Below are positions 688 to 19,776 of a DNA stretch of 23,195 bases, one piece after another. This stretch comes from a virus (Duplodnaviria > Heunggongvirae > Uroviricota > Caudoviricetes), in IMG/VR virus record IMGVR_UViG_2713896904_000008, positions 1 through 23,195 of that record; one strand, given 5' to 3'. The notes under the pieces are model-generated. The model saw only the letters and a list, made by a program, of their open reading frames with translations, was not told the origin of the DNA and searched no databases. The stretch's first letter is position 1. Every line of letters begins with the position of its first letter. A program made the position numbers and the translations under genes.

Positions 688-711
688 GGGACTCTTCGGA
701 GTCCCTTTTTT
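688..711 (+). terminator. Rho-independent terminator with UUCG tetraloop (gggactc-ttcg-gagtccc + TTTTTT)
   Basis: Perfect 7-bp stem, TTCG loop, T6 run; abuts stop of the convergent minus-strand gene. Confidence 0.6.
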
Positions 712-1669
712 ATTGGCAGTAAGAAAAGTTAGTACCGTACATTTCATCATGAAGCATTGCAACATTGCGTTTCTGTTCTTCTTCCTCGTCTACCGCATCA
801 CTAGAAAAATGAGATTTGCCCTTAAAAGAACGAAGCAATTGCAGTGCAGCCATCGGATCACGCATCACATCGATTTTCACTTCTACTTCATCATTTGCGG
901 CCTCATCAGCCGCGTTTTCAACTACTGCCACCGGAGCAACTTCTTTAGTTTTCAGTTCTTCAATCTCAGCTTTCTGGGCTTCGATGATCTGGTCTTTTTC
1001 TTCCAGTGCAGCTTTCAGTTTTTCAATCTCAGCTTTCTGTGCTTCGATGATCTGGTCTTTTTCTTCCAGTGAAGTAAAGCGCGGAGAAACAGCATTCACC
1101 TGTGCTTCCAGTTCCAGGAATGCTTCACAAGATTCAATGCGTTCTTTCAATTCACCTTCATACGCAACCACTTCTACTACTTCTTTCTCAGTAGCGTGGC
1201 TGTTAAAGAATACAGCAAAGTAAGGATTACCGGATTTGGTGAAGTTCAGTTTAGCTTTTCCGGTAACTTCTTTACGACGACCAAAGGTAATGTTGCAATC
1301 AGCGGTATCCTGAAAATCCATGTTAGGAGCGGAAACAATAGCAGTATCACCAGCAATCACCAGGTGGAACAGTTCAGAAGAGTTCTTAACGGTGAAAGTA
1401 ACGATGTGGTCTACTGCAACGTCTTTAGCAGGTTTAACACGGTCGATTGCTTTACGAATGCCGTTAGGCAGTTTACCGTCAACACCAAAGCCAGCCGCGA
1501 TCAGTGCTTCACGATGTGCTTTAAAGCCAGCGAAAGCGGATTTCTGCTGCGCAAAGGAAACATGAGCAACAACTTTCGGCTGAATCTTCTTGTTTGCTTC
1601 GGTGCCAAATTTGATAACTGCTTTAGCGTTGGTTACTTCGTTAGTGAAAAAGTTAGCGGAAAATAACAT
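710..1669 (-). CDS. Hypothetical abundant early protein with central coiled-coil tandem repeat and acidic C-terminus (319 aa)
   Basis: Long ORF with AGGAG RBS 8 nt upstream of ATG; highly biased codon usage; 21-aa repeat LEEKDQIIEAQKAEIEKLKAA x2; plus-strand ORFs 713-1666 are its shadows. Confidence 0.75.
   Translation of the reverse strand: MLFSANFFTNEVTNAKAVIKFGTEANKKIQPKVVAHVSFAQQKSAFAGFKAHREALIAAGFGVDGKLPNGIRKAIDRVKPAKDVAVDHIVTFTVKNSSELFHLVIAGDTAIVSAPNMDFQDTADCNITFGRRKEVTGKAKLNFTKSGNPYFAVFFNSHATEKEVVEVVAYEGELKERIESCEAFLELEAQVNAVSPRFTSLEEKDQIIEAQKAEIEKLKAALEEKDQIIEAQKAEIEELKTKEVAPVAVVENAADEAANDEVEVKIDVMRDPMAALQLLRSFKGKSHFSSDAVDEEEEQKRNVAMLHDEMYGTNFSYCQ
949..1074. repeat. 63-bp perfect-to-near-perfect tandem duplication (x2) inside the 319-aa gene
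   Basis: ttcaatctcagctttctg(g/t)gcttcgatgatctggtctttttcttccagtg repeated with 63-nt offset. Confidence 0.7.
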
Positions 1670-1966: not shown

Positions 1967-2031
1967 CTTAAATCCTCCTAAATCTGGATTAATGATTTCT
2001 TAAAAAAAGAGCGTTAACCGCTCACTATTAT

Positions 2032-2060
2032 TTATATGGGGATTGTTTTTAATTTTTCAA
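2032..2060 (-). promoter_or_regulatory. Sigma70-like promoter for the leftward 1966..1784 gene (minus-strand TTGAAA-17-ATATAA) with a 5-bp-arm inverted repeat (2009-2023) at the predicted start site
   Basis: Hexamers read on reverse complement: -35 at 2055-2060, -10 at 2032-2037, 17-nt spacer. Confidence 0.4.
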
Positions 2061-2474
2061 CCCCTCACATTTATCTCTTATATATGTATTTATAACAGAG
2101 ATATGTTAAAATGTTATTTGGATGTTATCAGGCGTGTTAAATGTGTTAAACCACAGCACGAATTGCTAAAGCGAAGAACACGAATTAACCAAATTGATGT
2201 TTATTCAATCAATTTAGAAAATTGCATAGCACTTTTTGCTAAAGCGGTGAGCATTAATTGAGCTATGAATTGTAAAGATTTGTTACAAGATTTTCTCTCA
2301 GATCCAAATCTTCACAGACATATAACAATTTAACAGAAGGATAACAAATGGAAGGAAAATCGGTAAATTTTCACTTTCAATACAAATATTATACCACATT
2401 TTTCTCGAATCGTCAATTATAGCACCGAACCGACATAGTGTCAAGAATGGACTTTCAAACCTACACTATGAAAA

Positions 2475-2640
2475 TTGCCCCTGAATTTTGCCCCCGAATA
2501 AAATCCCCAAGATTCTACTATCCCATTTTTGCCCCTGAAATTCCGGGAAACAGTGATTTTGCCCCTCATTTTTGCCCCTGAAATGCCAATAATTGCCCCT
2601 GAAAATCTAATTTTTGCCCCTGAAATTTGCCCCCGAAAAG
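2475..2640. repeat. Array of 8 direct repeats of TTTTGCCCC(T/C)GAAA (iteron-like)
   Basis: Copies at about 2475, 2486, 2526, 2557, 2569, 2592, 2611 and 2626; same motif forms the left arm of the terminator at 5122-5146. Confidence 0.7.
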
Positions 2641-2773
2641 GATTGGTGAGAAAAACTCTTTATAAAACATTAACTTAGTGATTGGTGAAAGCGGGGGATC
2701 GGGCGTGCATAGATATTATATAACACATTCGCTACGCTCATGTGTAAAACCAAAAATAACCAAAAAGATATTA

Positions 2774-2793
2774 GGAGGGCTTTAGCCCGACTG
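2774..2793. repeat. 20-bp direct repeat ggagggctttagcccgactg, copy 1
   Basis: Exact match to 3164-3183. Confidence 0.7.
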
Positions 2794-3163
2794 CGCGAAG
2801 CGCCAACCAATTGCTTCTAGTAACAACTAATTTAAACTAGATGATACTAGATGGTCTTAGAAGGAATTAACTAGTTTGCTCGCTCGCTTCGCTCACTCTC
2901 AAACGTCTGCGACGCCACTGCGTGGCATCGAGAATCACTTTCGAAAGGATTTTCTTGAAAGGGATTTTAAACTAGTTACTAACTGATTCTAGTAAACGAA
3001 CGAAGTGAGTAACAATCACTTTCTAGAAAGGTATTGGTATCCCTTCGGGATTGCAACCTTCGGTTGCTAAATTGCTTCCTGATTATTATTTCTCCAAAAG
3101 AAAGATTCTTATATTCTAAAGATACTTCTTCGTTTTGGTGATGATTTAATCAAAATCTATGAA

Positions 3164-3183
3164 GGAGGGCTTTAGCCCGACTG
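3164..3183. repeat. 20-bp direct repeat ggagggctttagcccgactg, copy 2
   Basis: Exact match to 2774-2793; the two copies bracket a ~370-bp CTAG-rich, hairpin-rich ORF-free segment. Confidence 0.7.
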
Positions 3184-3271
3184 AATCCAATCACTTCCAA
3201 ATAGATAAAAAATTCTCGTTATAAATACTAGTGTAATTTGTTTGATTCACTTTCTTTTAGAGGATACCACT

Positions 3272-3724
3272 ATGATCAATACTAAAACTCCTTTCGTACT
3301 TCTGGGTCTGAACCATGATGATAATCTGGATATGATGCATGTTTTCGCTAATCGTGGTTATAACATCATTCGTCATTCCGAAGACTCCAATTTCTCAACT
3401 GCTTTCTATGCTCTTAAACGTAATGGTCGCCCTACGGTGATCGTAGACTGCTTTACTGATGAAGGTCGTGAACAATACAACAACATTCCGGCAATTATTG
3501 TTCGTGATGACCTGCCGTTTGATGTTCGTGAATATGACGTTGATTTAGGCTCTTACTATGGGATCGCCGATCTTGACCAGATTATGGCTGATTACGGTAA
3601 ACAACCCGCTCAGGAAGCCCAAGAACACGATGAAGAGGATGAGGAAAACGAAGACTACGCACCAATCTGTTTCTCTTCTCAGAATGGCTTCTACGGTTAC
3701 GATGAAGGCTTAGATATGCTGTAA
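3272..3724 (+). CDS. Hypothetical acidic protein (150 aa from ATG 3272; ORF track starts at TTG 3242)
   Basis: AGAGGA RBS 7 nt before ATG 3272; biased codon usage; C-terminal Asp/Glu-rich tail (QEAQEHDEEDEENEDY). Confidence 0.7.
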   Translation: MINTKTPFVLLGLNHDDNLDMMHVFANRGYNIIRHSEDSNFSTAFYALKRNGRPTVIVDCFTDEGREQYNNIPAIIVRDDLPFDVREYDVDLGSYYGIADLDQIMADYGKQPAQEAQEHDEEDEENEDYAPICFSSQNGFYGYDEGLDML

Positions 3725-4177: not shown

Positions 4178-4279
4178 TAAATTTCTATTATAAATAAAAT
4201 TGTTCCGCGCGCCGTTGGCGTGTGGACAGTTAAAAACAGGAGAATCAATCACTAAACCGTTTAAGGGGAATTTTTTACT

Positions 4280-5113: not shown

Positions 5114-5121
5114 TAATTTTT

Positions 5122-5146
5122 GCCCCTGAATTTCAGGGGCTTTTTG
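5122..5146 (+). terminator. Rho-independent terminator (gcccctg-aattt-caggggc + TTTTT)
   Basis: Perfect stem and T-run immediately after the Rha-like gene stop. Confidence 0.7.
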
Positions 5147-5187
5147 TATCTGGAGTTTTTCGCCGAAAACCTGCAATACAGAATTTC

Positions 5188-5384
5188 GAAAGAATCAATA
5201 GGTTAGAGATGAGCGCAGTTTTGCGCCGATTGATTCAAGTTTGAATTTCTCGAAAGAATCAACCACTTAGATAGATACGCTGAACTTTAAGCACATCCCC
5301 TCAGTTTTGAGGGCATCTATAGATCAGTCCAAATCTGGACTCATCGGAAGAATCAATGACTTAGAGATGTGCTCAGTTTTGAGC
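5188..5384. repeat. Three copies of a ~40-bp unit (G)GAAAGAATCAA-N4-TTAGAGATG-hairpin, each hairpin with a conserved GTTT loop and covarying stem
   Basis: Hairpins gcgca-gttt-tgcgc (5213-5226), ccctca-gttt-tgaggg (5298-5313), gctca-gttt-tgagc (5371-5384); stems differ but stay complementary. Confidence 0.6.
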
Positions 5385-5390
5385 GGATAT

Positions 5391-6287: not shown

Positions 6288-6301
6288 ACAACCCCCTTTG
6301 A

Positions 6302-6329
6302 TTAATACCCGTATTTATCAAAATATCAA
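6302..6329 (-). promoter_or_regulatory. Candidate minus-strand promoter (TTGATA-16-TATTAA) for the leftward operon, in the divergent region with the terminase gene
   Basis: Read on reverse complement: -35 at 6324-6329, -10 at 6302-6307. Confidence 0.35.
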
Positions 6330-6372
6330 CAATTTAATAAATACCTTCATATTTCGTAATGAGGGTAATTAC

Positions 6373-8280
6373 ATGAAACTGATTTCGAACAAGGCCAAAT
6401 TAAAAAAGATTCTTAAAAATGCCGCAAAATATATCACTCCACCGCCTAAACTCCTTCCGTCTGAATGGTGCGAAGCGAATATGGTGCTGGTAGATGGTCC
6501 TCAAGCTGGGGATAAAGTTAAATTGTTGTCATTCCAAAAAGGCATGATTGATGCACCTTTCCTTGAGAACAAGAAAAAGTATGTTCTGATGACCAGTGCG
6601 CAGATCGGAAAGACTACCATCCTGAACGGTATCCTGTTTAACCAGATGGCTAACGATCCATGCAATATGATTATCGGACAATCAACCGCTAAAGAAATGT
6701 CTCAATATCTCGCGGGTAAGATCCGACCGTCTATCGAAGCATGTGATGCATTAAAAGACGTGGTTACAGACAAGAATGATCGCAATGCGGTTAACAACAA
6801 TAACCAGCTACAGCTAAAAACGAATCACTTCCTGTACATGGTATCGCTTACCAGTCCATCAACCCTACGTGGTAAGACCGCAAAGGTTGGATTGCTTGAC
6901 GAAATCGATGCTGCTACAGCCTCAGAAGAAGGTGATCCGGTGGCGCTGGCTGCTAACCGTTTAACTACCTTTGGCGATGAAGGTCGATTAGTCGTATCCA
7001 GTACCCCGACCAGTAAGCTCGGAAGCATTAACCAACAATGGTTATCAAGCGATATGCGTATGTTTTTTGTTCCGTGTCCTCATTGCGGTAGACACCAGGT
7101 GATCGAGTGGGAAAACGTTCAATTTGAATGGCGTAACATCGATGGTAAGAATTTACCCGATCCTGATACCGCTCGTTATATTTGCCCCCATTGTAAGAAC
7201 GCATGGACAGAAGGGGAACGAATCAGGGCAGTAGCGCAAGGCGAGTGGAGAGCAACCCGTGAAAGTGAAGTAGCAGGATTCTGGATTAGCCGTCTGTATT
7301 CACCTTTCAGCACGATCCGCGCTTGTGTGGTTGATTTTAGTCATGCGTGGCAATCCTTTGATTTACAATCATTTTATAACACCGTGTTAGGCAAGGTATA
7401 CGATGATCAGGACACGGCAGTAGAAGCAAATGAACTGGAAAAACTCAAAACAGATGTTTCTATCGAGAATATCCCTGATGACGTGATTTTCTTGTGCTCA
7501 GGAATTGACCAGCAATTGGATCGCGCAGAATCTACCATCTTAGGTGTAGCGAAAGATAAGGTTTACATTCTGGATCACCGTAGCTTTTACGATCATAACT
7601 GTGAACGATACGAATCACCTGTATGGGATCGTCTGGTTAACTTCAAGAAAACCAAATTCTATAACGTTAATGGTGAACGTGTGCCAATGCTCGCCAGCTT
7701 CCTCGATACATCAAACGGTCGATTCACTCAAGCCGGATACCGTATTTGTGGTAAGTGGAAGAACCTACACGCTATTAAAGGTAGTTCATCCGGTAATGCT
7801 CCAGTGATTCCGGTTAAACCTACCCGCACAGGTGGTCATGAATTGCTTATGCTGGGCGTTAACGTTGGTAAATCCGCTGTTCGTGAAATGCTGGTTAGAA
7901 ACCTGAAAGATAATCCTCATATTGGCTTAGAAATATCAGAAACCGTTCCTGATGATTATCTCGATCAGCTTTTGAGTGAATCCATCAAGCGTACTACTAC
8001 TGGTGTTCGTTGGGTGAAAAATCCAGGTAGTACCCGAAACGAGGCTCTCGACTGTCTGGTTTATAGCTATGCTGCTTCTCGCTACGTTCTTTCAAAAATG
8101 TCATGGGATAAACTCATTGCAATGAAAGACAGCTTAAACCGTGTTGTCGAAGAATCCGTAGAAGCTCATAAATCGCAATCTGACGAGCAAATCGAAGAAA
8201 CTAAGCCAAACCCACGACCACAGCGTCAAAACATCGCCAGACGTCCAAATAGAGGCCGTAGCTGGGTAACATCGTTCTAA
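6373..8280 (+). CDS. Terminase large subunit (lambda GpA-like), 635 aa from ATG 6373
   Basis: GAGGG RBS 7 nt before ATG 6373 (ORF track starts at 6298); Walker A-like [11 protein letters not shown]; size and position immediately upstream of portal. Confidence 0.85.
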
Positions 8281-12415: not shown

Positions 12416-12553
12416 ACTAACGTAGAACCTTCTGAACCTTCCCCCGATTTGGGGGAAGAAAATCTGATTCCATCTCAGGAAGAAGAATCCCAGACGGTTA
12501 CGGCGAAAGCCACAGCTAAAAAGGCGGGTCGTCCGCCGAAAGCAAAAGAATAA
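12416..12553 (+). other. In-frame open extension after the capsid TGA stop (45 codons: TNVEPSEPSPDLGEENLIPSQEEESQTVTAKATAKKAGRPPKAKE, then TAA TAA); candidate readthrough segment
   Basis: Hand translation in the capsid frame shows no stop until 12551-12553; perfect 8-bp hairpin cttccccc-gattt-gggggaag at 12438-12458. Confidence 0.45.
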
Positions 12554-12558
12554 TAATT

Positions 12559-12586
12559 AGCCCTGCCTAACGGTGGGGCTTTTTTG
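12559..12586 (+). terminator. Rho-independent terminator (agccctgcc-taac-ggtggggct + TTTTT)
   Basis: Stem with G-U pairs and T-run; same terminator family as 18458 and 19731. Confidence 0.75.
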
Positions 12587-12616: not shown

Positions 12617-12907
12617 ATGTTCAAATTATCAGAATCACAATTAAATCGAATGTTTAAGAGTGCTCCTGTTTTTGTCGTGGAAGGTGGTAAATCAATTCGT
12701 GCTTACCATGAAATTACTACTACCGACGAACAAGGGGTATGGACAGAATCAGAATTCTTATTCTGTCGTGAGGGAGATTTAAAGCAAGGTGATATTGTCA
12801 TTGTAGAAAATCAGCGTTTCAAAGTTCAATACATTAAGCGCAATGGTGACAATACCAGTGATTGCTTTATCACTTTAGCAGGGGGTGCTCATGCTCGCTA
12901 CCGTTAA
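12617..12907 (+). CDS. Putative head-completion / head-tail adaptor protein (96 aa)
   Basis: GGGGGTAA RBS; small ORF directly after capsid gene; synteny-based. Confidence 0.5.
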   Translation: MFKLSESQLNRMFKSAPVFVVEGGKSIRAYHEITTTDEQGVWTESEFLFCREGDLKQGDIVIVENQRFKVQYIKRNGDNTSDCFITLAGGAHARYR

Positions 12908-13313
12908 TAATATGCCACGTCTTAAGATTAAACGTGCTTTACAGGATATTATCGAACAAGATCTAGGTCTGGCTTTAAACGTAGAACAAACTCAGCAAGG
13001 CTTTAGTGATGACGTGGTTTGTTGGATCACCGGAATGAATGAGACTTACAATAGGGTCCGTGGCGGTAATGCAATGCAAGCTGAATGCGTTATCGAAATG
13101 CAATTGTATTCTCAGATTCATGAAACCAAAATTCATGAGGGTATTTGCCAGATAATCCAGATTCAGCCAGATAACCCACGTTTTAAAGATTTGGGCTTCG
13201 CTATTTCAGATATCACTCCAGTAGCCTCTAATACCGATTATGACGACGATTCTAGTGATGGGGGTATCGTTGGGACACTTAGCCTTAAATTTTCTTATCT
13301 AGCGCGTTTTTAA
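12891..13313 (+). CDS. Putative head-tail joining / tail completion protein (141 aa from ATG 12891; ORF track starts at GTG 12885)
   Basis: AGGGGG 5 nt before ATG 12891; 17-nt overlap with upstream gene suggests translational coupling; synteny-based. Confidence 0.5.
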   Translation: MLATVNNMPRLKIKRALQDIIEQDLGLALNVEQTQQGFSDDVVCWITGMNETYNRVRGGNAMQAECVIEMQLYSQIHETKIHEGICQIIQIQPDNPRFKDLGFAISDITPVASNTDYDDDSSDGGIVGTLSLKFSYLARF

Positions 13314-14233: not shown

Positions 14234-17200
14234 ATGCAGTCGATCCAATTTAAACGCACACAGACGGCTGGTAAAAAGCCAACGCCGGAACAATTACAGG
14301 TCGGTGAAATCGCTATTCAGATGGCAGACCATGTAATTTATACCAAAGATAAAAATAACGCAGTAGTTCAAGTAAGTGTTTCTCCTGAAAGTCATAATGC
14401 TTTAAACACAAAAGTAGACAATAACAAGAAAACTACTGATGCGACTATCGCGGCAAATAAAACCGAAGCTGCTAACGCTCTGGCTACCGCTAAATCTGAA
14501 CTGAATAACACGATTAACACGAAAGATACAGCGACCAATAAGCGCATTGATGCTACTAACACCACTGTTAGTAACTTAACCCAGACAGTTACGGCAAATA
14601 AAACCGACGCTGACACCAAGATCAATAACCTTACGGGGACAGTTGCATCTAACAAATCAGCTATTGAAACTACAGTAGCTAATAACAAACGAGATGCGGA
14701 CAATAAAATCGCAGCTTTAACCACGACGGTTAATGACAATAACACCGCGATTAACAACAAAGTTAATACCACTAACACCAACGTTAGCAACTTAACTAAA
14801 ACTGTTACTGCAAATAAAACCGATGCAGATAACAAAATTTCTAGCTTAACTAGCACGGTTGCAGCTAACAAAACAGCGATTGAAAAGGTCGTTTCCGACA
14901 ACAAGAAAGATGCTGATACTAAAATCAGTAACCTTACAGGGACGGTGAATAGCAACCATACCGCTATTAACGCAAAGGTTGACAAAAACAAAACTGATAC
15001 TGATTCAGCGATCGCAGCCGCTAACCGTCGAATTGATTCTATTGAAGGTAGTAACGATGCTCTTTACATCAAGAAGAATACCAACACTTATCATCACGGC
15101 TATTTGTTAACCAAAACAGCTAACTATCTGGAAGACCAGACATCACGAGATCTTAACTACTTTGGTGCTTTCCGAACTAATGGACAAGATGGACTCATGG
15201 ATCTAACTCTTAATGTTCCTCATTCTGCCGGTAAAGCGCACGGTCGCGGATTTACTTTCCGTTATGCGTCTGGTGGATCTCGTGTTGAAACCTATGGTTT
15301 TGATAGAGAAGGACAGAAGAACTTTAGCTATAAGATGTATCACGAAGGTGATAAGCCGACTCCTGGCGAAATCGGTGCATACACTAAAGCAGAAGTTGAC
15401 AAGATGTTTGTTAAAAACGTCACTATGTCTGTTCCTAATTCTAGCGAAAACGTATCTGCATATTTCAAATTGGCAACCGCAACAATTCCACAAAACGGGC
15501 GTAGTGTGTTTTTCCGTATTCATGGTGGTAATGGTTACAACGTTACGGCATATGACCAAGTTGATGTAGTAGAAATTCTTCTCCGTAGTGGTAACGATAG
15601 ACCTAAAGGACTTAACGTAATTGCATACCGTAGAAATACAAACAAAGATTTTGAGGTATTTGCTGTCAATACTTCCGGTGATAACTATGATATCTACGTG
15701 AAATATCAGCGTTATACCGATAACGTTATTGTCGAATATGGGAAATCTGTTTATGTAAGTTTGACGGTTTATGATACGCCGGAAGCCACGTTAATTAAAC
15801 CTTCCGTTGGTGTTATCGGTGGTCGCAACGTAACTCTTTTTAACACAGAAAATAAACGTGGTGTGTTGAGTTTTGACGACAATACACAAAACAGCTATGA
15901 CATTGTTCATCTAAGCAATGATAGAGGTACTGGACGGAAATATATTCGTAAATTCCGTAGCAACTATAACGAAATGATCTGGCATGAGACTGTTCAAGGT
16001 AATACATATCGATTGGCAACCGGAACGACTGATGCATCGGAAGTTTTTAGAATTACTAGTCGCACCATGTTTACTGGTAAAGGTGTATTTGATGCCGGAC
16101 AAAACGTTCTTAGATTAGAGCGTCCTAGCAACCAATCAAACTATATTGAATGGCAAGACCGCCGAAATGGTGCTGATGCTCGTCAAGGTTGGATCGGTTT
16201 TGGTGGTGCTGAAACAAATAACTTTCAATGGTATAGCGATCAAGGAAAAAACTCATTCCTGTTGGATGCTAATGGTCAATGCTCTATTATTACTGGTGCA
16301 ACAAAAATTGTATATACCAACGGTGAATATTGCTCTGGCAACTCTAACGCATATCGTATGGCATTTGGTAACTATGGCGCATTCTGGCGTAATGACGGCA
16401 CTAAAGTTTATCTGTTGTCTACTGCTGAAAACGATAAGTTGGGCGGCTGGAATACTTATCGACCATTCATTTATGATTTAACTTCCGGTAACGTTCAATT
16501 AGGCGGTGATGGTAACGAAGATGCATTAACGTTAGAACGTGCTTCTCGTGCCGCTCGCTTTAGTAATGACGTTTACATTAAGAAAGGGCATTTGACTTTC
16601 GACGCTGGACGATTAGGATCTCGTGATTTCTTTAAAATCAACCATTGGGGTGATAGCAATAACGCCCGTGATAACATTTTGCAGTTTGAAGACAGTCAGG
16701 GCGCACATTTTACCACTGAACGTGCTATGGGTACTGGTAACATAACAGCACGTTTTAAAGGCTTTGTTCGTGTTGAGTCTGGTGAGATTGCATTTGATGC
16801 TAATCGGGGGTCGCAGTCTCAATTCACCTTACACACATGGGGTAACGAGCAACGCAAACAGGTTTTTGAATGTAAGGATGCTACAAGTTATCACTGGTAT
16901 ACTGAACGTACTCAGGGTGGCACTGGACCTATTCTGTTCGCTATGGCGGGTAGTCTAAACGTTGCTAGCAATATCACAACAACTGGTGCTGATATTACGT
17001 TTAAACGCGCTGGCAATAAGCACATCTGGTTTAGAGATCCAGACGGTTTAGAGTTAGGCTTGATGTACTGCGATGATGCTGGTGCTATTCGCTTCCGTGG
17101 TCAGAAACAAGCCCAGACGTGGAAACTTGCGGATAAGATGATTCATCTTGAATCTGGTAGCGTCGGCGGGTCTGATAAAGGTTTGATTCGTGGTAACGTT

Positions 17201-17809
17201 TCTGGTGGTAGTTGGGCTAGCTGGCGTGACCGTGCTTCCGGTTTACAAGTTGATTGTCCTCAATCAACCGATTCCGCTCATAACATCTGGAAAGCGACTC
17301 ATTGGGGAAAATATCATATTGCGGCAATGGGTGTGCATGTTCCTGGCGGCACTATAGGTAATGCTATGGCACGTCTAAACGTAAATGACGCCAACTTTGA
17401 CTTTAACGCTGCGGGTGATTTTAGCGCAGGTCGTAACGGTAGCTTTAACGATGTTTATATTCGTTCTGACCGTCGTCTGAAAGTTAATCTGGAAGAATTA
17501 AAAGATGATGCTTTAGAGAAAGTAAACTCCCTGAAAGTCTACTCATACGATAAAGTTAAGTCTCTTAAAGATCGTAGTGTGATTAAACGCGAAGTCGGTA
17601 TTATTGCTCAGGATCTTGAAGAAGTATTGCCGGAAGCAGTAGGTATTCAATCCACCGAAGATCCAGAAAATCCAGAAGCAATTAAGACTATTTCTAACTC
17701 CGCTGTTAATGCCTTGATTATTAAAGCTATTCAGGAAATGGACGCCAAATATAAAGCCCAGATCGAAGCATTACAGAAAGAAATTGCCGAACTCAAAGCA
17801 ACTAAATAA
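14234..17809 (+). CDS. Long tail fibre protein with C-terminal intramolecular chaperone / self-cleaving domain (1191 aa)
   Basis: N-terminal KRTQTAGKKPTPEQLQVGEIAI anchor-like motif; 72-aa tandem repeats; C-terminus SDRRLK ... GIIAQDLEEVLPEAV resembles the chaperone domain of phage T5 L-shaped fibre and endosialidases (Ser-Lys dyad motif). Confidence 0.85.
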   Translation: MQSIQFKRTQTAGKKPTPEQLQVGEIAIQMADHVIYTKDKNNAVVQVSVSPESHNALNTKVDNNKKTTDATIAANKTEAANALATAKSELNNTINTKDTATNKRIDATNTTVSNLTQTVTANKTDADTKINNLTGTVASNKSAIETTVANNKRDADNKIAALTTTVNDNNTAINNKVNTTNTNVSNLTKTVTANKTDADNKISSLTSTVAANKTAIEKVVSDNKKDADTKISNLTGTVNSNHTAINAKVDKNKTDTDSAIAAANRRIDSIEGSNDALYIKKNTNTYHHGYLLTKTANYLEDQTSRDLNYFGAFRTNGQDGLMDLTLNVPHSAGKAHGRGFTFRYASGGSRVETYGFDREGQKNFSYKMYHEGDKPTPGEIGAYTKAEVDKMFVKNVTMSVPNSSENVSAYFKLATATIPQNGRSVFFRIHGGNGYNVTAYDQVDVVEILLRSGNDRPKGLNVIAYRRNTNKDFEVFAVNTSGDNYDIYVKYQRYTDNVIVEYGKSVYVSLTVYDTPEATLIKPSVGVIGGRNVTLFNTENKRGVLSFDDNTQNSYDIVHLSNDRGTGRKYIRKFRSNYNEMIWHETVQGNTYRLATGTTDASEVFRITSRTMFTGKGVFDAGQNVLRLERPSNQSNYIEWQDRRNGADARQGWIGFGGAETNNFQWYSDQGKNSFLLDANGQCSIITGATKIVYTNGEYCSGNSNAYRMAFGNYGAFWRNDGTKVYLLSTAENDKLGGWNTYRPFIYDLTSGNVQLGGDGNEDALTLERASRAARFSNDVYIKKGHLTFDAGRLGSRDFFKINHWGDSNNARDNILQFEDSQGAHFTTERAMGTGNITARFKGFVRVESGEIAFDANRGSQSQFTLHTWGNEQRKQVFECKDATSYHWYTERTQGGTGPILFAMAGSLNVASNITTTGADITFKRAGNKHIWFRDPDGLELGLMYCDDAGAIRFRGQKQAQTWKLADKMIHLESGSVGGSDKGLIRGNVSGGSWASWRDRASGLQVDCPQSTDSAHNIWKATHWGKYHIAAMGVHVPGGTIGNAMARLNVNDANFDFNAAGDFSAGRNGSFNDVYIRSDRRLKVNLEELKDDALEKVNSLKVYSYDKVKSLKDRSVIKREVGIIAQDLEEVLPEAVGIQSTEDPENPEAIKTISNSAVNALIIKAIQEMDAKYKAQIEALQKEIAELKATK
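14558..14990. repeat. Two tandem ~216-bp repeats (72 aa each, with ~14-aa sub-periodicity TVTANKTDADxKIxxLTxTV) in the fibre shaft
   Basis: NTTVSNLTQTVTANKTDADTKI at residue 109 and NTNVSNLTKTVTANKTDADNKI at residue 181. Confidence 0.7.
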
Positions 17810-18341: not shown

Positions 18342-18452
18342 ACTTTCGAAGAACAACCCCAGCCAATTCAAGATGAACCTACGGTGATTCCAGAATTAGA
18401 GGTTGTTACGGCGAAAGCCACAGCTAAACGAAGCCGCAAGGCTAAAGATTAA
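18342..18452 (+). other. In-frame open extension after the major tail TGA stop (36 codons: TFEEQPQPIQDEPTVIPELEVVTAKATAKRSRKAKD, then TAA); candidate readthrough segment
   Basis: Hand translation; shares the 24-nt block gttacggcgaaagccacagctaaa (peptide VTAKATAK) with the capsid extension. Confidence 0.45.
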
Positions 18453-18457
18453 TTATA

Positions 18458-18486
18458 AGCCCTGCCTTAATGGTGGGGCTTTTTTA
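18458..18486 (+). terminator. Rho-independent terminator (agccctgcc-ttaat-ggtggggct + TTTTT)
   Basis: Same stem sequence as the terminator at 12559. Confidence 0.75.
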
Positions 18487-19730: not shown

Positions 19731-19758
19731 GCCCTGCCGTTATTGGCGGGGCTTTTTT
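19731..19758 (+). terminator. Rho-independent terminator (gccctgcc-gttatt-ggcggggc + TTTTTT)
   Basis: Third member of the gccctgcc / ggggc terminator family. Confidence 0.75.
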
Positions 19759-19776
19759 GTATAAAGAGAGGTACAC

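Follow-up and report, generated by a model that had tools for sequence, protein, structure and literature searches.

A hairpin-rich, mosaic non-coding segment in a common Escherichia prophage: a candidate early control region with an element shared with RB49-like phages

Background

What is the role of about 370 bp of phage DNA that contains no open reading frame and is bracketed by two perfect copies of a 20-mer? The segment lies at positions 2774–3183 of a 23,195-nucleotide stretch of the Caudoviricetes record IMGVR_UViG_2713896904_000008 (the whole stretch is referred to here as the window), and a sequence-only reading had proposed that it could be either a small structured RNA gene or a miniature inserted element with duplicated flanks.

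The window is part of a roughly 35-kb temperate Escherichia prophage that is undescribed but common. It encodes a lambda-type gpA large terminase (TerL, 6298–8280), a lambda-family portal, a protease–capsid fusion and tail genes, and the closest phage terminase, that of DCP80, is 43% identical. The tail-fiber gene at 15113–17740, with 78–89% identity to gp37 of RB49-like Krischvirus, is the sole megablast match of the window among 50,697 phage records; nothing outside this gene was matched in that collection. The region 2300–3700 was found in 58 of 5426 complete E. coli chromosomes and in no plasmids, and further relatives are present on about 40 IMG/VR contigs, many of them about 35 kb long. 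In the one genome traced end to end, that of E. coli ETEC1717, a 33-kb prophage interrupts hicB and carries a large serine recombinase gene at its far end. The large terminase gene of this prophage is truncated, a small-terminase-like gene is located about 5.5 kb upstream of the large terminase position in intact relatives, and no replication gene is recognizable.

The segment belongs to a non-coding gap of about 1.3 kb (1967–3271) that divides a leftward pair of genes, coding for 60 and 319 aa, from a rightward operon with a 150-aa gene, a 110-aa gene and a Rha-family regulator gene, in this order. PGAP annotated no gene in the equivalent gap DNA of four E. coli genomes. The first downstream gene (3272–3724, plus strand) has no assigned function, and its 150-aa product has no homologue in the 50,697 phage records. 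A box TATAAATA at 3220–3227 on the plus strand, 44 nt upstream of the ATG, is invariant in every relative. The Rha gene is preceded by a similar layout of a box followed by a GC hairpin (TATAAATA, then CCGCGCGCC-GTT-GGCGTGTGG), which we count in favor of reading such units as leader cassettes.

The 20-mer as a hairpin between constant flanks

The 20-mer, GGAGGGCTTTAGCCCGACTG, holds up as a perfect direct repeat. It occurs exactly twice in the window, at 2774–2793 (copy 1) and 3164–3183 (copy 2), both on the plus strand, and no third copy was found there even when 3 mismatches were allowed (chance expectation 0). A longer degenerate unit around the 20-mer was considered and rejected, as the flanks yield a local-alignment score of 17 compared to 17–18 after shuffling; the repeat is sharply bounded. 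Copy 1 consists of GGAG, a hairpin formed by GGGC (2777–2780), the loop TTTA and GCCC (2785–2788), and GACTG, and the corresponding hairpin of copy 2 is at 3167–3178.

We compared the copies in an alignment of 31 non-redundant relatives, which carry four allelic left modules designated A (the window's own) to D. Copy 2 is present in 31 of 31, always directly after ...TTTAATCAAA(N)ATGAA, and its GGAG and GACTG flanks are constant, with the single exception of GACAG in one relative. Between them the hairpin appears as GGGC-TTTA-GCCC, GGGC-TTT-GCCC, GGGC-TAT-GCCC, GGC-GAA-GCC or GGGCTAGCCC. Copy 1 with GGAG and GACTG flanks occurs only with the A-type left module, where it usually reads GGAGGGC-GTA/TTT-GCCCGACTG, that is, GGGC-GTA-GCCC or GGGC-TTT-GCCC. 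The shared flanks were not found at this position in B-, C- or D-type relatives, and the B-type relatives have CGGC-GTA-GCCG there, without flanks and with the outer G:C pair changed to C:G. Because the flanks do not vary and pairing in the stem is kept, we read the 20-mer from this alignment as a hairpin, with a paired stem and a free loop, set between sequence-constrained flanks. A small ORF starting from ATG 3159 or CTG 3181 was tried as well; both frames are disrupted in relatives by the 1- and 3-nt indels of the hairpin.

Since copies 1 and 2 are unlike each other in most genomes (with loops GTA, TTT, TTTA and GAA), their perfect identity is private to the window genome and probably arose by short-patch conversion; compared with the TTT form, copy 1 of the window has one inserted A. 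Identical pairs occur only in the window (TTTA/TTTA) and in relatives L028/L063 (TTT/TTT), and the fact that each has identical copies of a different variant fits concerted evolution. RB49-like genomes do not contain the GGAGG-hairpin-GACTG motif. When 185,579 species genomes were scanned for GAAGGAGG-N4-10-CCGACTGAAT, 70 matches resulted, all in unrelated taxa and of the same order as the approximately 10^2 that we estimate for chance, and no extra enterobacterial relatives emerged.

Non-coding, hairpin-dense DNA between the repeats

The DNA between the repeats had been described as ORF-free, CTAG-rich and structured, and this description is borne out. No reading frame of at least 60 aa is present, only TTG frames of 35–36 aa. 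CTAG occurs 7 times in 2794–3163 compared with 1.4 expected, a count reached in none of 2000 dinucleotide shuffles, and the window as a whole is CTAG-depleted (35 observed compared with 61 expected). The GC hairpins are all there, with GCCAC-TGC-GTGGC at 2914–2926, one base to the left of the position first assigned to it. The 23-kb window contains 11 perfect GC-rich hairpins with 3-nt loops and stems of 4 bp or more, and 5 of them fall within the 416 bp from 2770 to 3185, where 0.22 would be expected. The predicted folding of the segment is also far more stable than that of shuffled sequences on both strands (z of −5.3 and −6.2). ORF, CTAG, hairpin and folding results thus agree that the bracketed DNA is non-coding, unusually structured and non-random.

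Each of the five 3-nt-loop hairpins in 2770–3185 has the form C(GNA)G on one of the two strands, with GNA on the plus strand in the left hairpins and on the minus strand in the right ones, and the words GCGAAGC and CCGAAGG, both known as mini-hairpin words, are among them. The leftmost, GCGC-GAA-GCGC (2793–2803, plus strand), abuts copy 1, holds GCGAAGC and is found as GCGC-GAA/GTA-GCGC in A- and B-type relatives. The hairpin at 2914–2926 has an extended stem (2904–2933) and is predicted to be steadier on the minus strand (−16.5 compared to −12.6 kcal/mol on the plus strand) because G.U takes the place of C.A. On the right, ATCCC-TTC-GGGAT (3039–3051) and GCAACC-TTC-GGTTGC (3053–3067) form an adjacent pair (3039–3067), with C-GAA-G on the minus strand. 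No U-run was found after any of the hairpins, which are therefore not canonical intrinsic terminators.

The excess of CTAG is accounted for by recurring words that contain it, namely ACTAGATG, ACTAGTT and TTCTAGT. A direct repeat of ACTAGATG with 10-bp spacing (2836–2853) contributes two of the CTAGs, and one of its copies is gone by a 10-bp deletion in L017/L065. Other words recur as well: AATCAC(T), and GAAAGG(G/T)ATT, which starts at 2944, 2958 and 3026, with the looser forms aAAAGGATT at 2635 and GAAGGAATT at 2860. Two operator-like palindromes are present, AATCACTTTC|GAAAGGATT at 2933–2951, where a block conserved in A- and B-type relatives (2930–2992) starts, and AATCACTTTC-TA-GAAAGGTATT at 3014–3035. 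By their sequence, these words and palindromes look like regulator binding sites.

Exchangeable blocks and the left module

The interior is a mosaic of short, independently reassorting blocks. Breakpoints of blastn homology are located near 2036, 2347, 2935 and 3080, and the identity to the window ranges from 9 to 100% and varies independently from segment to segment. Relative L049 has a foreign left half, yet 98–99% identity in 3031–3163, whereas L009 shares the left half of the window, yet is only 61% identical in 3071–3163. In L003 and L024 the homology to the window begins at 3081–3082, which is the left edge of the RB49-like element discussed below. The mean identity of this element among relatives is 92%, and a few have a replacement (61–71%); a variable block at 2993–3030 exists among relatives in two alternative versions; and the downstream 150-aa gene is only 56–64% identical in many relatives.

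Hairpins are replaced along with the blocks. The place of GCCAC-TGC-GTGGC at 2914–2926 is taken by ACGCC-TAC-GGCGT in B-type and by GCGCCC-TGCG-GGGCGC in C- and D-type relatives, and the pair at 3039–3067 is substituted in L003 and L024 by TGC-TTC-GCA plus GACGCTC-AGG-GAGCGTC. The filling of fixed hairpin positions by unrelated stems in other module types argues that the hairpin structures themselves may be under selection. Applied to 14 sequences, RNAalifold recovered local hairpins only, with hardly any covariation over long distances; the alternative hairpins replace one another, and MAFFT puts them in different columns.

The exchangeable left module that includes copy 1 also carries an iteron array, TTGCCCCTGAA repeated five times at 2475–2637 on the plus strand, which in relatives is replaced by arrays of CCTACAC, ATGTACAA or TCCCCG. 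The 319-aa protein, encoded at 710–1669 on the minus strand and a putative cognate iteron binder, is found only in relatives with TTGCCCCTGAA iterons; E. albertii has an identical copy of it. The other iteron types are accompanied by different proteins of the same build, in which a coiled coil and an acidic tail follow an N-terminal domain of about 170 aa; the B-type protein has 333 aa. Between the 319-aa-class gene and the repeats lies the 60-aa gene, which is not exchanged with the iteron type. Iteron type and 319-aa-class protein thus co-vary over four allelic types while the intervening gene does not, and we interpret this pattern as the signature of a cognate pair, presumably repressor and operator or initiator and iteron. 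The 60-aa HTH-like protein was also considered as the iteron binder and was rejected, as it does not co-vary with the iterons and L007 has an identical protein with different iterons. The 319-aa protein has no similarity to initiators, and its fold was uninformative. DnaA boxes are not enriched. An AT-rich block with 26–29% GC (2000–2400) adjoins the iteron array.

An element shared with RB49-like phages

At the right end of the segment, positions 3079–3163 on the plus strand form an AT-rich element of about 85 bp, and homologous DNA is found in RB49-like Krischvirus as an intergenic repeat. The element matches 59 Krischvirus records with about 78% identity and an E-value of about 1e-8 in 2.3 Gb. 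In RB49 itself the repeat has four copies (62809–62889, 97540–97612, 97689–97772 and, in complementary orientation, 150074–150000), which are 76–78% identical to the element over 75–85 bp; the element is present once in the window and once in each relative. Two mini-hairpins with 3-nt loops (such as GTCGC-TTT-GCGAC and GTGCC-GTA-GGCAC) stand in front of every RB49 copy, the same layout as at 3039–3067 in the window. As far as we could find, this four-copy Krischvirus repeat has not been described.

The element and the RB49 repeat share conserved hexamers of the form TTG(G/A)T(N)-17-TAT(A/T/G)(A/T)(A/T), which in relatives of the window read TTGATG or TTGCTG and (T/C)ATGAA. The best promoter-like register in the window is TTGGTG (3136–3141)-17-TATGAA (3158–3163), which matches the consensus at 3 of 6 and 4 of 6 positions, lacks the T at −7 and is not among the sites listed by a sigma70 consensus scan. 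Because copy 2 of the 20-mer follows this −10-like box immediately, a transcript from the element would open with the copy-2 hairpin. The isolated gene RB49ORF130w has one RB49 copy directly in front of it, oriented as the gene is and with no other annotated feature in between. Against the notion of a leader, the other three of the four RB49 copies point away from or against neighboring genes, and the candidate −10, TATGAA (CATGAA in some relatives), is without the conserved final T. Nolan et al. (PMC1524935 supplement) do not list the RB49 repeat among their predicted early promoters of RB49, and the 3' end of one of its copies coincides with the position of a predicted RB49 late promoter (PMC1524935 supplement).

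Other promoter-like sites are present in the gap. The sequence-only reading had pointed out a candidate sigma70 promoter, TTGAAA (2955–2960)-16-TACTAA (2977–2982) on the plus strand. The site is where it was reported to be, but it is weak: it lacks the final T of the −10, is not listed by the promoter scan of the window, and its −35 is not conserved, with relatives having TTAGAA or TCGAAA. The variable block at 2993–3030 includes a minus-strand promoter-like site, TTGTTA-18-TAGAAT (3015–2986). The same scan identified two near-consensus sigma70 promoter-like sites, TTGACA-17-TATAAT and TTGACG-17-TATAAT, on the minus strand at 2388–2444, beside the iteron array and pointing left.

A candidate early control region

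The feature is real and non-random; it is of an ordinary sort, although its setting is unusual. We propose that the segment is the central piece of a hairpin- and operator-rich early control region composed of promoter, operator and stem-loop cassettes that act in a PeSL-like manner, a proposal to which we assign about an even chance of being correct. Starting from the anatomy, conservation and mosaicism described above, the RB49 homology and the lack of empty sites, we infer where transcription would start, what the RNA might do and where proteins might bind. The control region would extend over about 1.3 kb from the leftward operon (60-aa HTH-like and 319-aa proteins) to the early operon that runs rightward (150-aa, 110-aa and Rha-family proteins), and its cassettes would comprise operator-like palindromes and words, small GC hairpins whose loops mostly have 3 nt, and the single RB49-shared AT-rich promoter-like element. 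The 20-mer would be one such cassette hairpin, a 3–4-bp G/C stem with a free loop, set between a strong Shine–Dalgarno-like GGAGG and GACTG. With transcription predicted to start at about 3168–3170, inside GGAGG|GC, the copy-2 hairpin would be 5'-terminal, and copy 2 could serve as a 5'-leader stem-loop and ribosome-binding decoy that stabilizes or insulates the early mRNA. The remaining hairpins may attenuate or stabilize read-through transcripts, and the repeated words are candidate regulator binding sites. Copy 1 would represent the homologous first hairpin of the exchangeable left module, made identical to copy 2 by local homogenization (short-patch gene conversion or a 1-nt indel) and not by target-site duplication.

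The closest parallel is provided by the PeSL cassettes of RB49 and phi1, composite promoter and stem-loop units that mediate modular shuffling and bound exchangeable genes (PMC2839356). PeSLs of RB49/phi1 and other T4-like phages (Arbiol et al. 2010, PMC2839356; Comeau et al. 2014, PMC4122927) and the window unit are both composite intergenic units of about 100 bp, in which a GC stem-loop, an AT-rich stretch and hexamers resembling a promoter come before a Shine–Dalgarno sequence and a gene. In both, the stem-loop may precede the −35 or follow closely on the −10, and both are located at borders of exchangeable modules, where they mark mosaic breakpoints. In the window the AT-rich stretch 3050–3149 has 30% GC, stem-loops adjoin the RB49-like element on both sides (the pair at 3039–3067 upstream and the copy-2 hairpin at 3167–3178 just after the −10-like box), and the homology of L003 and L024 starts at the left edge of the element. 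The two differ in that TTGGTG-17-TATGAA falls short of the near-consensus sigma70 boxes of PeSLs, and in that PeSLs are present in many copies in hyperplastic regions (about 50) whereas the window unit occurs once per prophage. Moreover, the host of the window unit is a temperate siphovirus-type prophage and not a T4-like phage, and neither mini-circles nor indel polymorphism have been seen for the unit. Membership among the canonical PeSLs was considered and rejected, as the 17 canonical PeSLs of RB49 share nothing with 3079–3163; their sequence, aaaaagttgTTGACAggggatc..gatccccTATAAT...GGAGAATCAAAATG, is not that of the four-copy RB49 repeat that the window matches. Judging from its sequence, the element may work like a PeSL, yet we do not file it as one. 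The four-copy RB49 repeat resembles the window arrangement in that two of its copies are in tandem within an ORF-free 413-bp gap and in its mini-hairpin loops (GTA, TTC and TTT); it differs in lacking GGAGG-hairpin-GACTG downstream and in its mixed orientation relative to neighboring genes.

Known 5'-UTR mRNA stabilizers include the ompA-type 5'-terminal stem-loop with a ribosome-binding segment and the STAB-SD of Bacillus cryIIIA. The window motif resembles them in having a GC hairpin at or close to the predicted 5' end and a strong Shine–Dalgarno-like GGAGG with no usable start codon behind it; it differs from the ompA leader in being far shorter. There is also a likeness to lambda nut and HK022 put, where a short motif with a hairpin is present twice per genome in early leaders and varies between related phages. 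Unlike in those systems, the loop in the window is not conserved, the copies are on the same strand 390 bp apart, and there is neither a boxA nor an N-like protein.

Alternative explanations

Considering first the readings that give the segment a function at the level of DNA or RNA, the region could be a replication origin, in which the iterons, the 319-aa protein and the AT-rich stretch would be accompanied by mini-hairpins that extrude in single-stranded DNA as priming or primosome-loading signals. Extrusion would involve hp1 and hp2 on the plus strand and hp3, hpA and hpB on the minus strand, by analogy with RSF1010 ssiA/ssiB or the G4 origin hairpin. We consider this unlikely, while the co-variation of iteron type and 319-aa-class protein over four allelic types, the ETEC1717 prophage without a recognizable replication gene, the AT-rich block at 2000–2400 and the C(GNA)G type of five of five 3-nt-loop hairpins, with left GNA on plus and right on minus, are all in its favor. 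C(GNA)G loops are best known for their stability in single-stranded DNA, and they fit a DNA-level role at least as well as an RNA-level one. Mini-hairpins of this kind are reported to be frequent in phage replication-initiation regions, in ssiA and in N4 promoters (review, PMC13037366). The window shares with the ssi and mini-hairpin DNA of the G4 origin, RSF1010 ssiA/ssiB and the N4 vRNAP promoters (PMC13037366) the words GCGAAGC, CCGAAGG and GCGTAGC and stems of 4–6 bp with 3-nt loops, here clustered beside iterons; it differs in lacking a dedicated primase or virion RNA polymerase and the conserved ssi flanks. A role of the segment in RNA, as one structured RNA gene, had been suggested at the outset, and this does not agree with a mosaic interior that folds by RNAalifold into local hairpins only, or with the covariance-model search, in which no Rfam 15 family, C4 antisense RNA included, was matched at its gathering score. 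A variant with one or more small regulatory RNAs between the repeats, for example a processed leader RNA that controls the Rha/antirepressor operon with the repeats as targets, would be analogous to P1 c4 and the P4 CI RNA. In P4, direct repeats flank the immunity RNA. The strong predicted folding on both strands, the conserved hairpins, the minus-strand promoter-like site at 3015–2986, the greater steadiness of hp3 on the minus strand and the Ant/Rha-type gene downstream would suit such an RNA. However, the best Rfam match, snoZ103, scores 24 bits compared to a threshold of 44 and represents noise, and the interior contains nothing complementary to the repeats at more than chance level (RNAduplex −27.2/−23.3 kcal/mol compared to −23.2/−22.8 for shuffled sequences, with sd about 2.6, a difference of at most about 1.5 sd). 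In addition, the interior is mosaic and indel-rich with only local covariation, and the shared copy-1 flanks are missing in the B, C and D types. We give this possibility little credence.

The other explanations turn on movement or deletion of the segment. A perfect 20-bp direct repeat around 370 bp of ORF-free DNA, with a hairpin inside each repeat as at the ends of IS200/IS605 derivatives, is what one would expect of a miniature mobile element (either a MITE or a PATE of the IS200/IS605 type, which has subterminal hairpins) that inserted together with the repeats or between them. The insertion proposed in the sequence-only reading called for relatives without the segment, and among the 31 non-redundant relatives there are none; no empty site was seen, the copies mostly differ, and the interior has breakpoints of its own. 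A synthetic excised junction, in which copy 1 is joined to the DNA after copy 2, gave no contiguous match in the 42 matching E. coli genomes, and in all 26 genomes that cover the whole junction query its halves are about 390–490 bp apart (the pieces span about 830–930 bp). Neither the window nor RB49 contains another copy of the repeat or the interior, and matches in the 185,579 species genomes are at chance level. Relatives with other left modules keep a homologous interior without GGAG/GACTG at copy 1, and the conserved hairpin of the repeat is homologous to a hairpin in relatives that lack the repeat flanks, which speaks against a target duplication. A mobile element is extremely unlikely in view of these comparisons. 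Barely credible is the notion that the repeats are sites for a site-specific recombinase, such as the serine recombinase of the prophage, which would delete the interior as a genetic switch. The direct repeats do have an internal palindrome, GGGCT-TT-AGCCC, and the prophage encodes a large serine recombinase, but the center of the site varies (3 or 4 nt, with the stem shortened in some cases), even between the two copies of one genome, and the excised-junction search detected the deletion product in no E. coli genome.

Implications

If the proposed control region is the right reading, modular promoter and stem-loop cassettes, which have been suggested to drive shuffling in T4-like phages, extend beyond these phages, and in a temperate prophage family they would organize the control region and also be swapped in and out of it. 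E. coli, E. albertii and Shigella commonly carry this family, of which no phage has ever been isolated or described. It would also follow that non-coding regulatory DNA, together with a tail-fiber gene, has passed between a temperate siphovirus-type element and a lineage of lytic myoviruses.

The RB49 connection leads us to a further speculation, which we regard as very unlikely, that the control region serves as a point of contact with RB49-like (Krischvirus) phages when these superinfect; their T4-type machinery would switch on the early genes and perhaps replication, with the prophage acting as a hitch-hiker or as a defence. This notion is based on the lack of recognizable replication genes, the RB49-type tail-fiber gene (78–89%), the RB49-type element with its mini-hairpins and the invariant TATAAATA boxes ahead of the first genes, at 3220 and 4189, which correspond to the T4 late promoter. 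To us, the most interesting aspects of the locus are the non-coding element shared with RB49 together with the tail-fiber gene and the TATAAATA boxes, and the allelic repeat/protein modules. The region represents a compact natural set of four allelic types of repeat/protein pairs and of C(GNA)G mini-hairpins that may act as RNA stabilizers, attenuators or single-stranded DNA signals.

Prophage family and relation to RB49-like phages

The window belongs to a family of prophages of ~33–36 kb, one copy of which, the ETEC1717 prophage (NZ_CP122876, 2569020–2602335; loci L030 and L031), was examined end to end. This prophage is inserted in hicB and encodes a large serine recombinase, together with two T5orf172/GIY-YIG-like endonucleases and a protein resembling the T4 'inhibitor of prohead protease'; a small-terminase-like gene precedes the position of the large terminase by ~5.5 kb. 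No recognisable replication gene was found along its length, and the collection of 50,697 phage records includes no isolated phage of this family.

The tail-fibre gene of the window (15113–17740) shares 78–89% nucleotide identity with gp37 from RB49-like Krischvirus, and outside this gene the window had no megablast match in the phage collection. RB49 itself carries further copies of the 80-bp element that it shares with the window (3079–3163). Two tandem copies, accompanied by mini-hairpins, occupy an ORF-free gap of 413 bp (RB49 97435–97847), and another lies on the opposite strand between genes 35 and 36 (within 149953–150155); Nolan et al. (2006) predicted a late promoter, Pl:150021, that coincides with its 3' end. 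We found no description of this RB49 repeat.

Of the terminases in the phage collection, that of phage DCP80 (PQ671644) comes closest, at 43%; it belongs to a 141-kb record filed under Straboviridae/Gaprivervirus. Despite this label, the first genes of the record are a gpA terminase of lambda type and lambda-like head genes, which suggests that it is either chimeric or oddly classified.

Repeats and promoter-like motifs around the control region

Five copies of the iteron TTGCCCCTGAA are found at 2475–2637, the last three phased at 21 bp, and the same word makes up the palindromic terminator GCCCCTGAATTTCAGGGGC that follows the Rha gene (5120–5140). In relatives the array is exchanged for arrays of CCTACAC, ATGTACAA or TCCCCG. 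The 319-aa protein (gene at 710–1669, minus strand) co-varies with the type of array, its substitutes being unrelated proteins of 328–339 aa with the same domain build, and the 60-aa gene located between the two is not exchanged when array and protein change. Inside the 319-aa gene, a 63-bp tandem duplication (947–1072, 94% identity) encodes a coiled-coil unit of 21 residues (LEEKDQIIEAQKAEIEKLKAA), and the 63-bp unit is present in one to four copies among close relatives.

Two overlapping leftward promoter-like sites of near-consensus sigma70 type, TTGACA-17-TATAAT (with TG) and TTGACG-17-TATAAT, are located at 2388–2444 on the minus strand and precede the 60-aa gene by ~420 nt. The T4 late-promoter consensus TATAAATA occurs five times in the window, at 3220, 4189 and 1670 on the plus strand and at 2036 and 2094 on the minus strand; all five boxes fall in the first 4.2 kb, with none in the other 19 kb, and three or four are correctly oriented 44–130 nt 5' of gene starts. 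The box at 3220, unchanged in 31 relatives, has a possible −35 element at a spacing of 19 nt, which is poor for sigma70.

Upstream of the Rha gene, GGAGAATCAA (4238–4247) is the same as the Shine–Dalgarno block closing the canonical promoter-early stem-loop cassettes of RB49 (…GGAGAATCAAAATG). It lies ~35 nt ahead of the real Rha start, which has a separate Shine–Dalgarno sequence. The gap after the Rha gene contains a TCGAAAGAATCAATAGGTTAGAGATGAGCGCAGTTTTGCGCCGAT-like repeat unit of ~45 nt (5186–5388), with two clear copies (5186–5230 and 5344–5388, 82%), a third, looser copy around 5236–5271, and a small hairpin at the end of each.

Other features of the window

ARAGORN called a 91-nt tRNA-Gln at 13078–13168 on the minus strand, inside the plus-strand ORF 12885–13313; this call is probably spurious. 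Terminator-like blocks (GCCCTGCCT..GGTGGGGCTTTTTT) recur at 12539–12585, 18438–18484, 19745–19762 and 1734–1754, and such blocks lie 3' of several structural genes.
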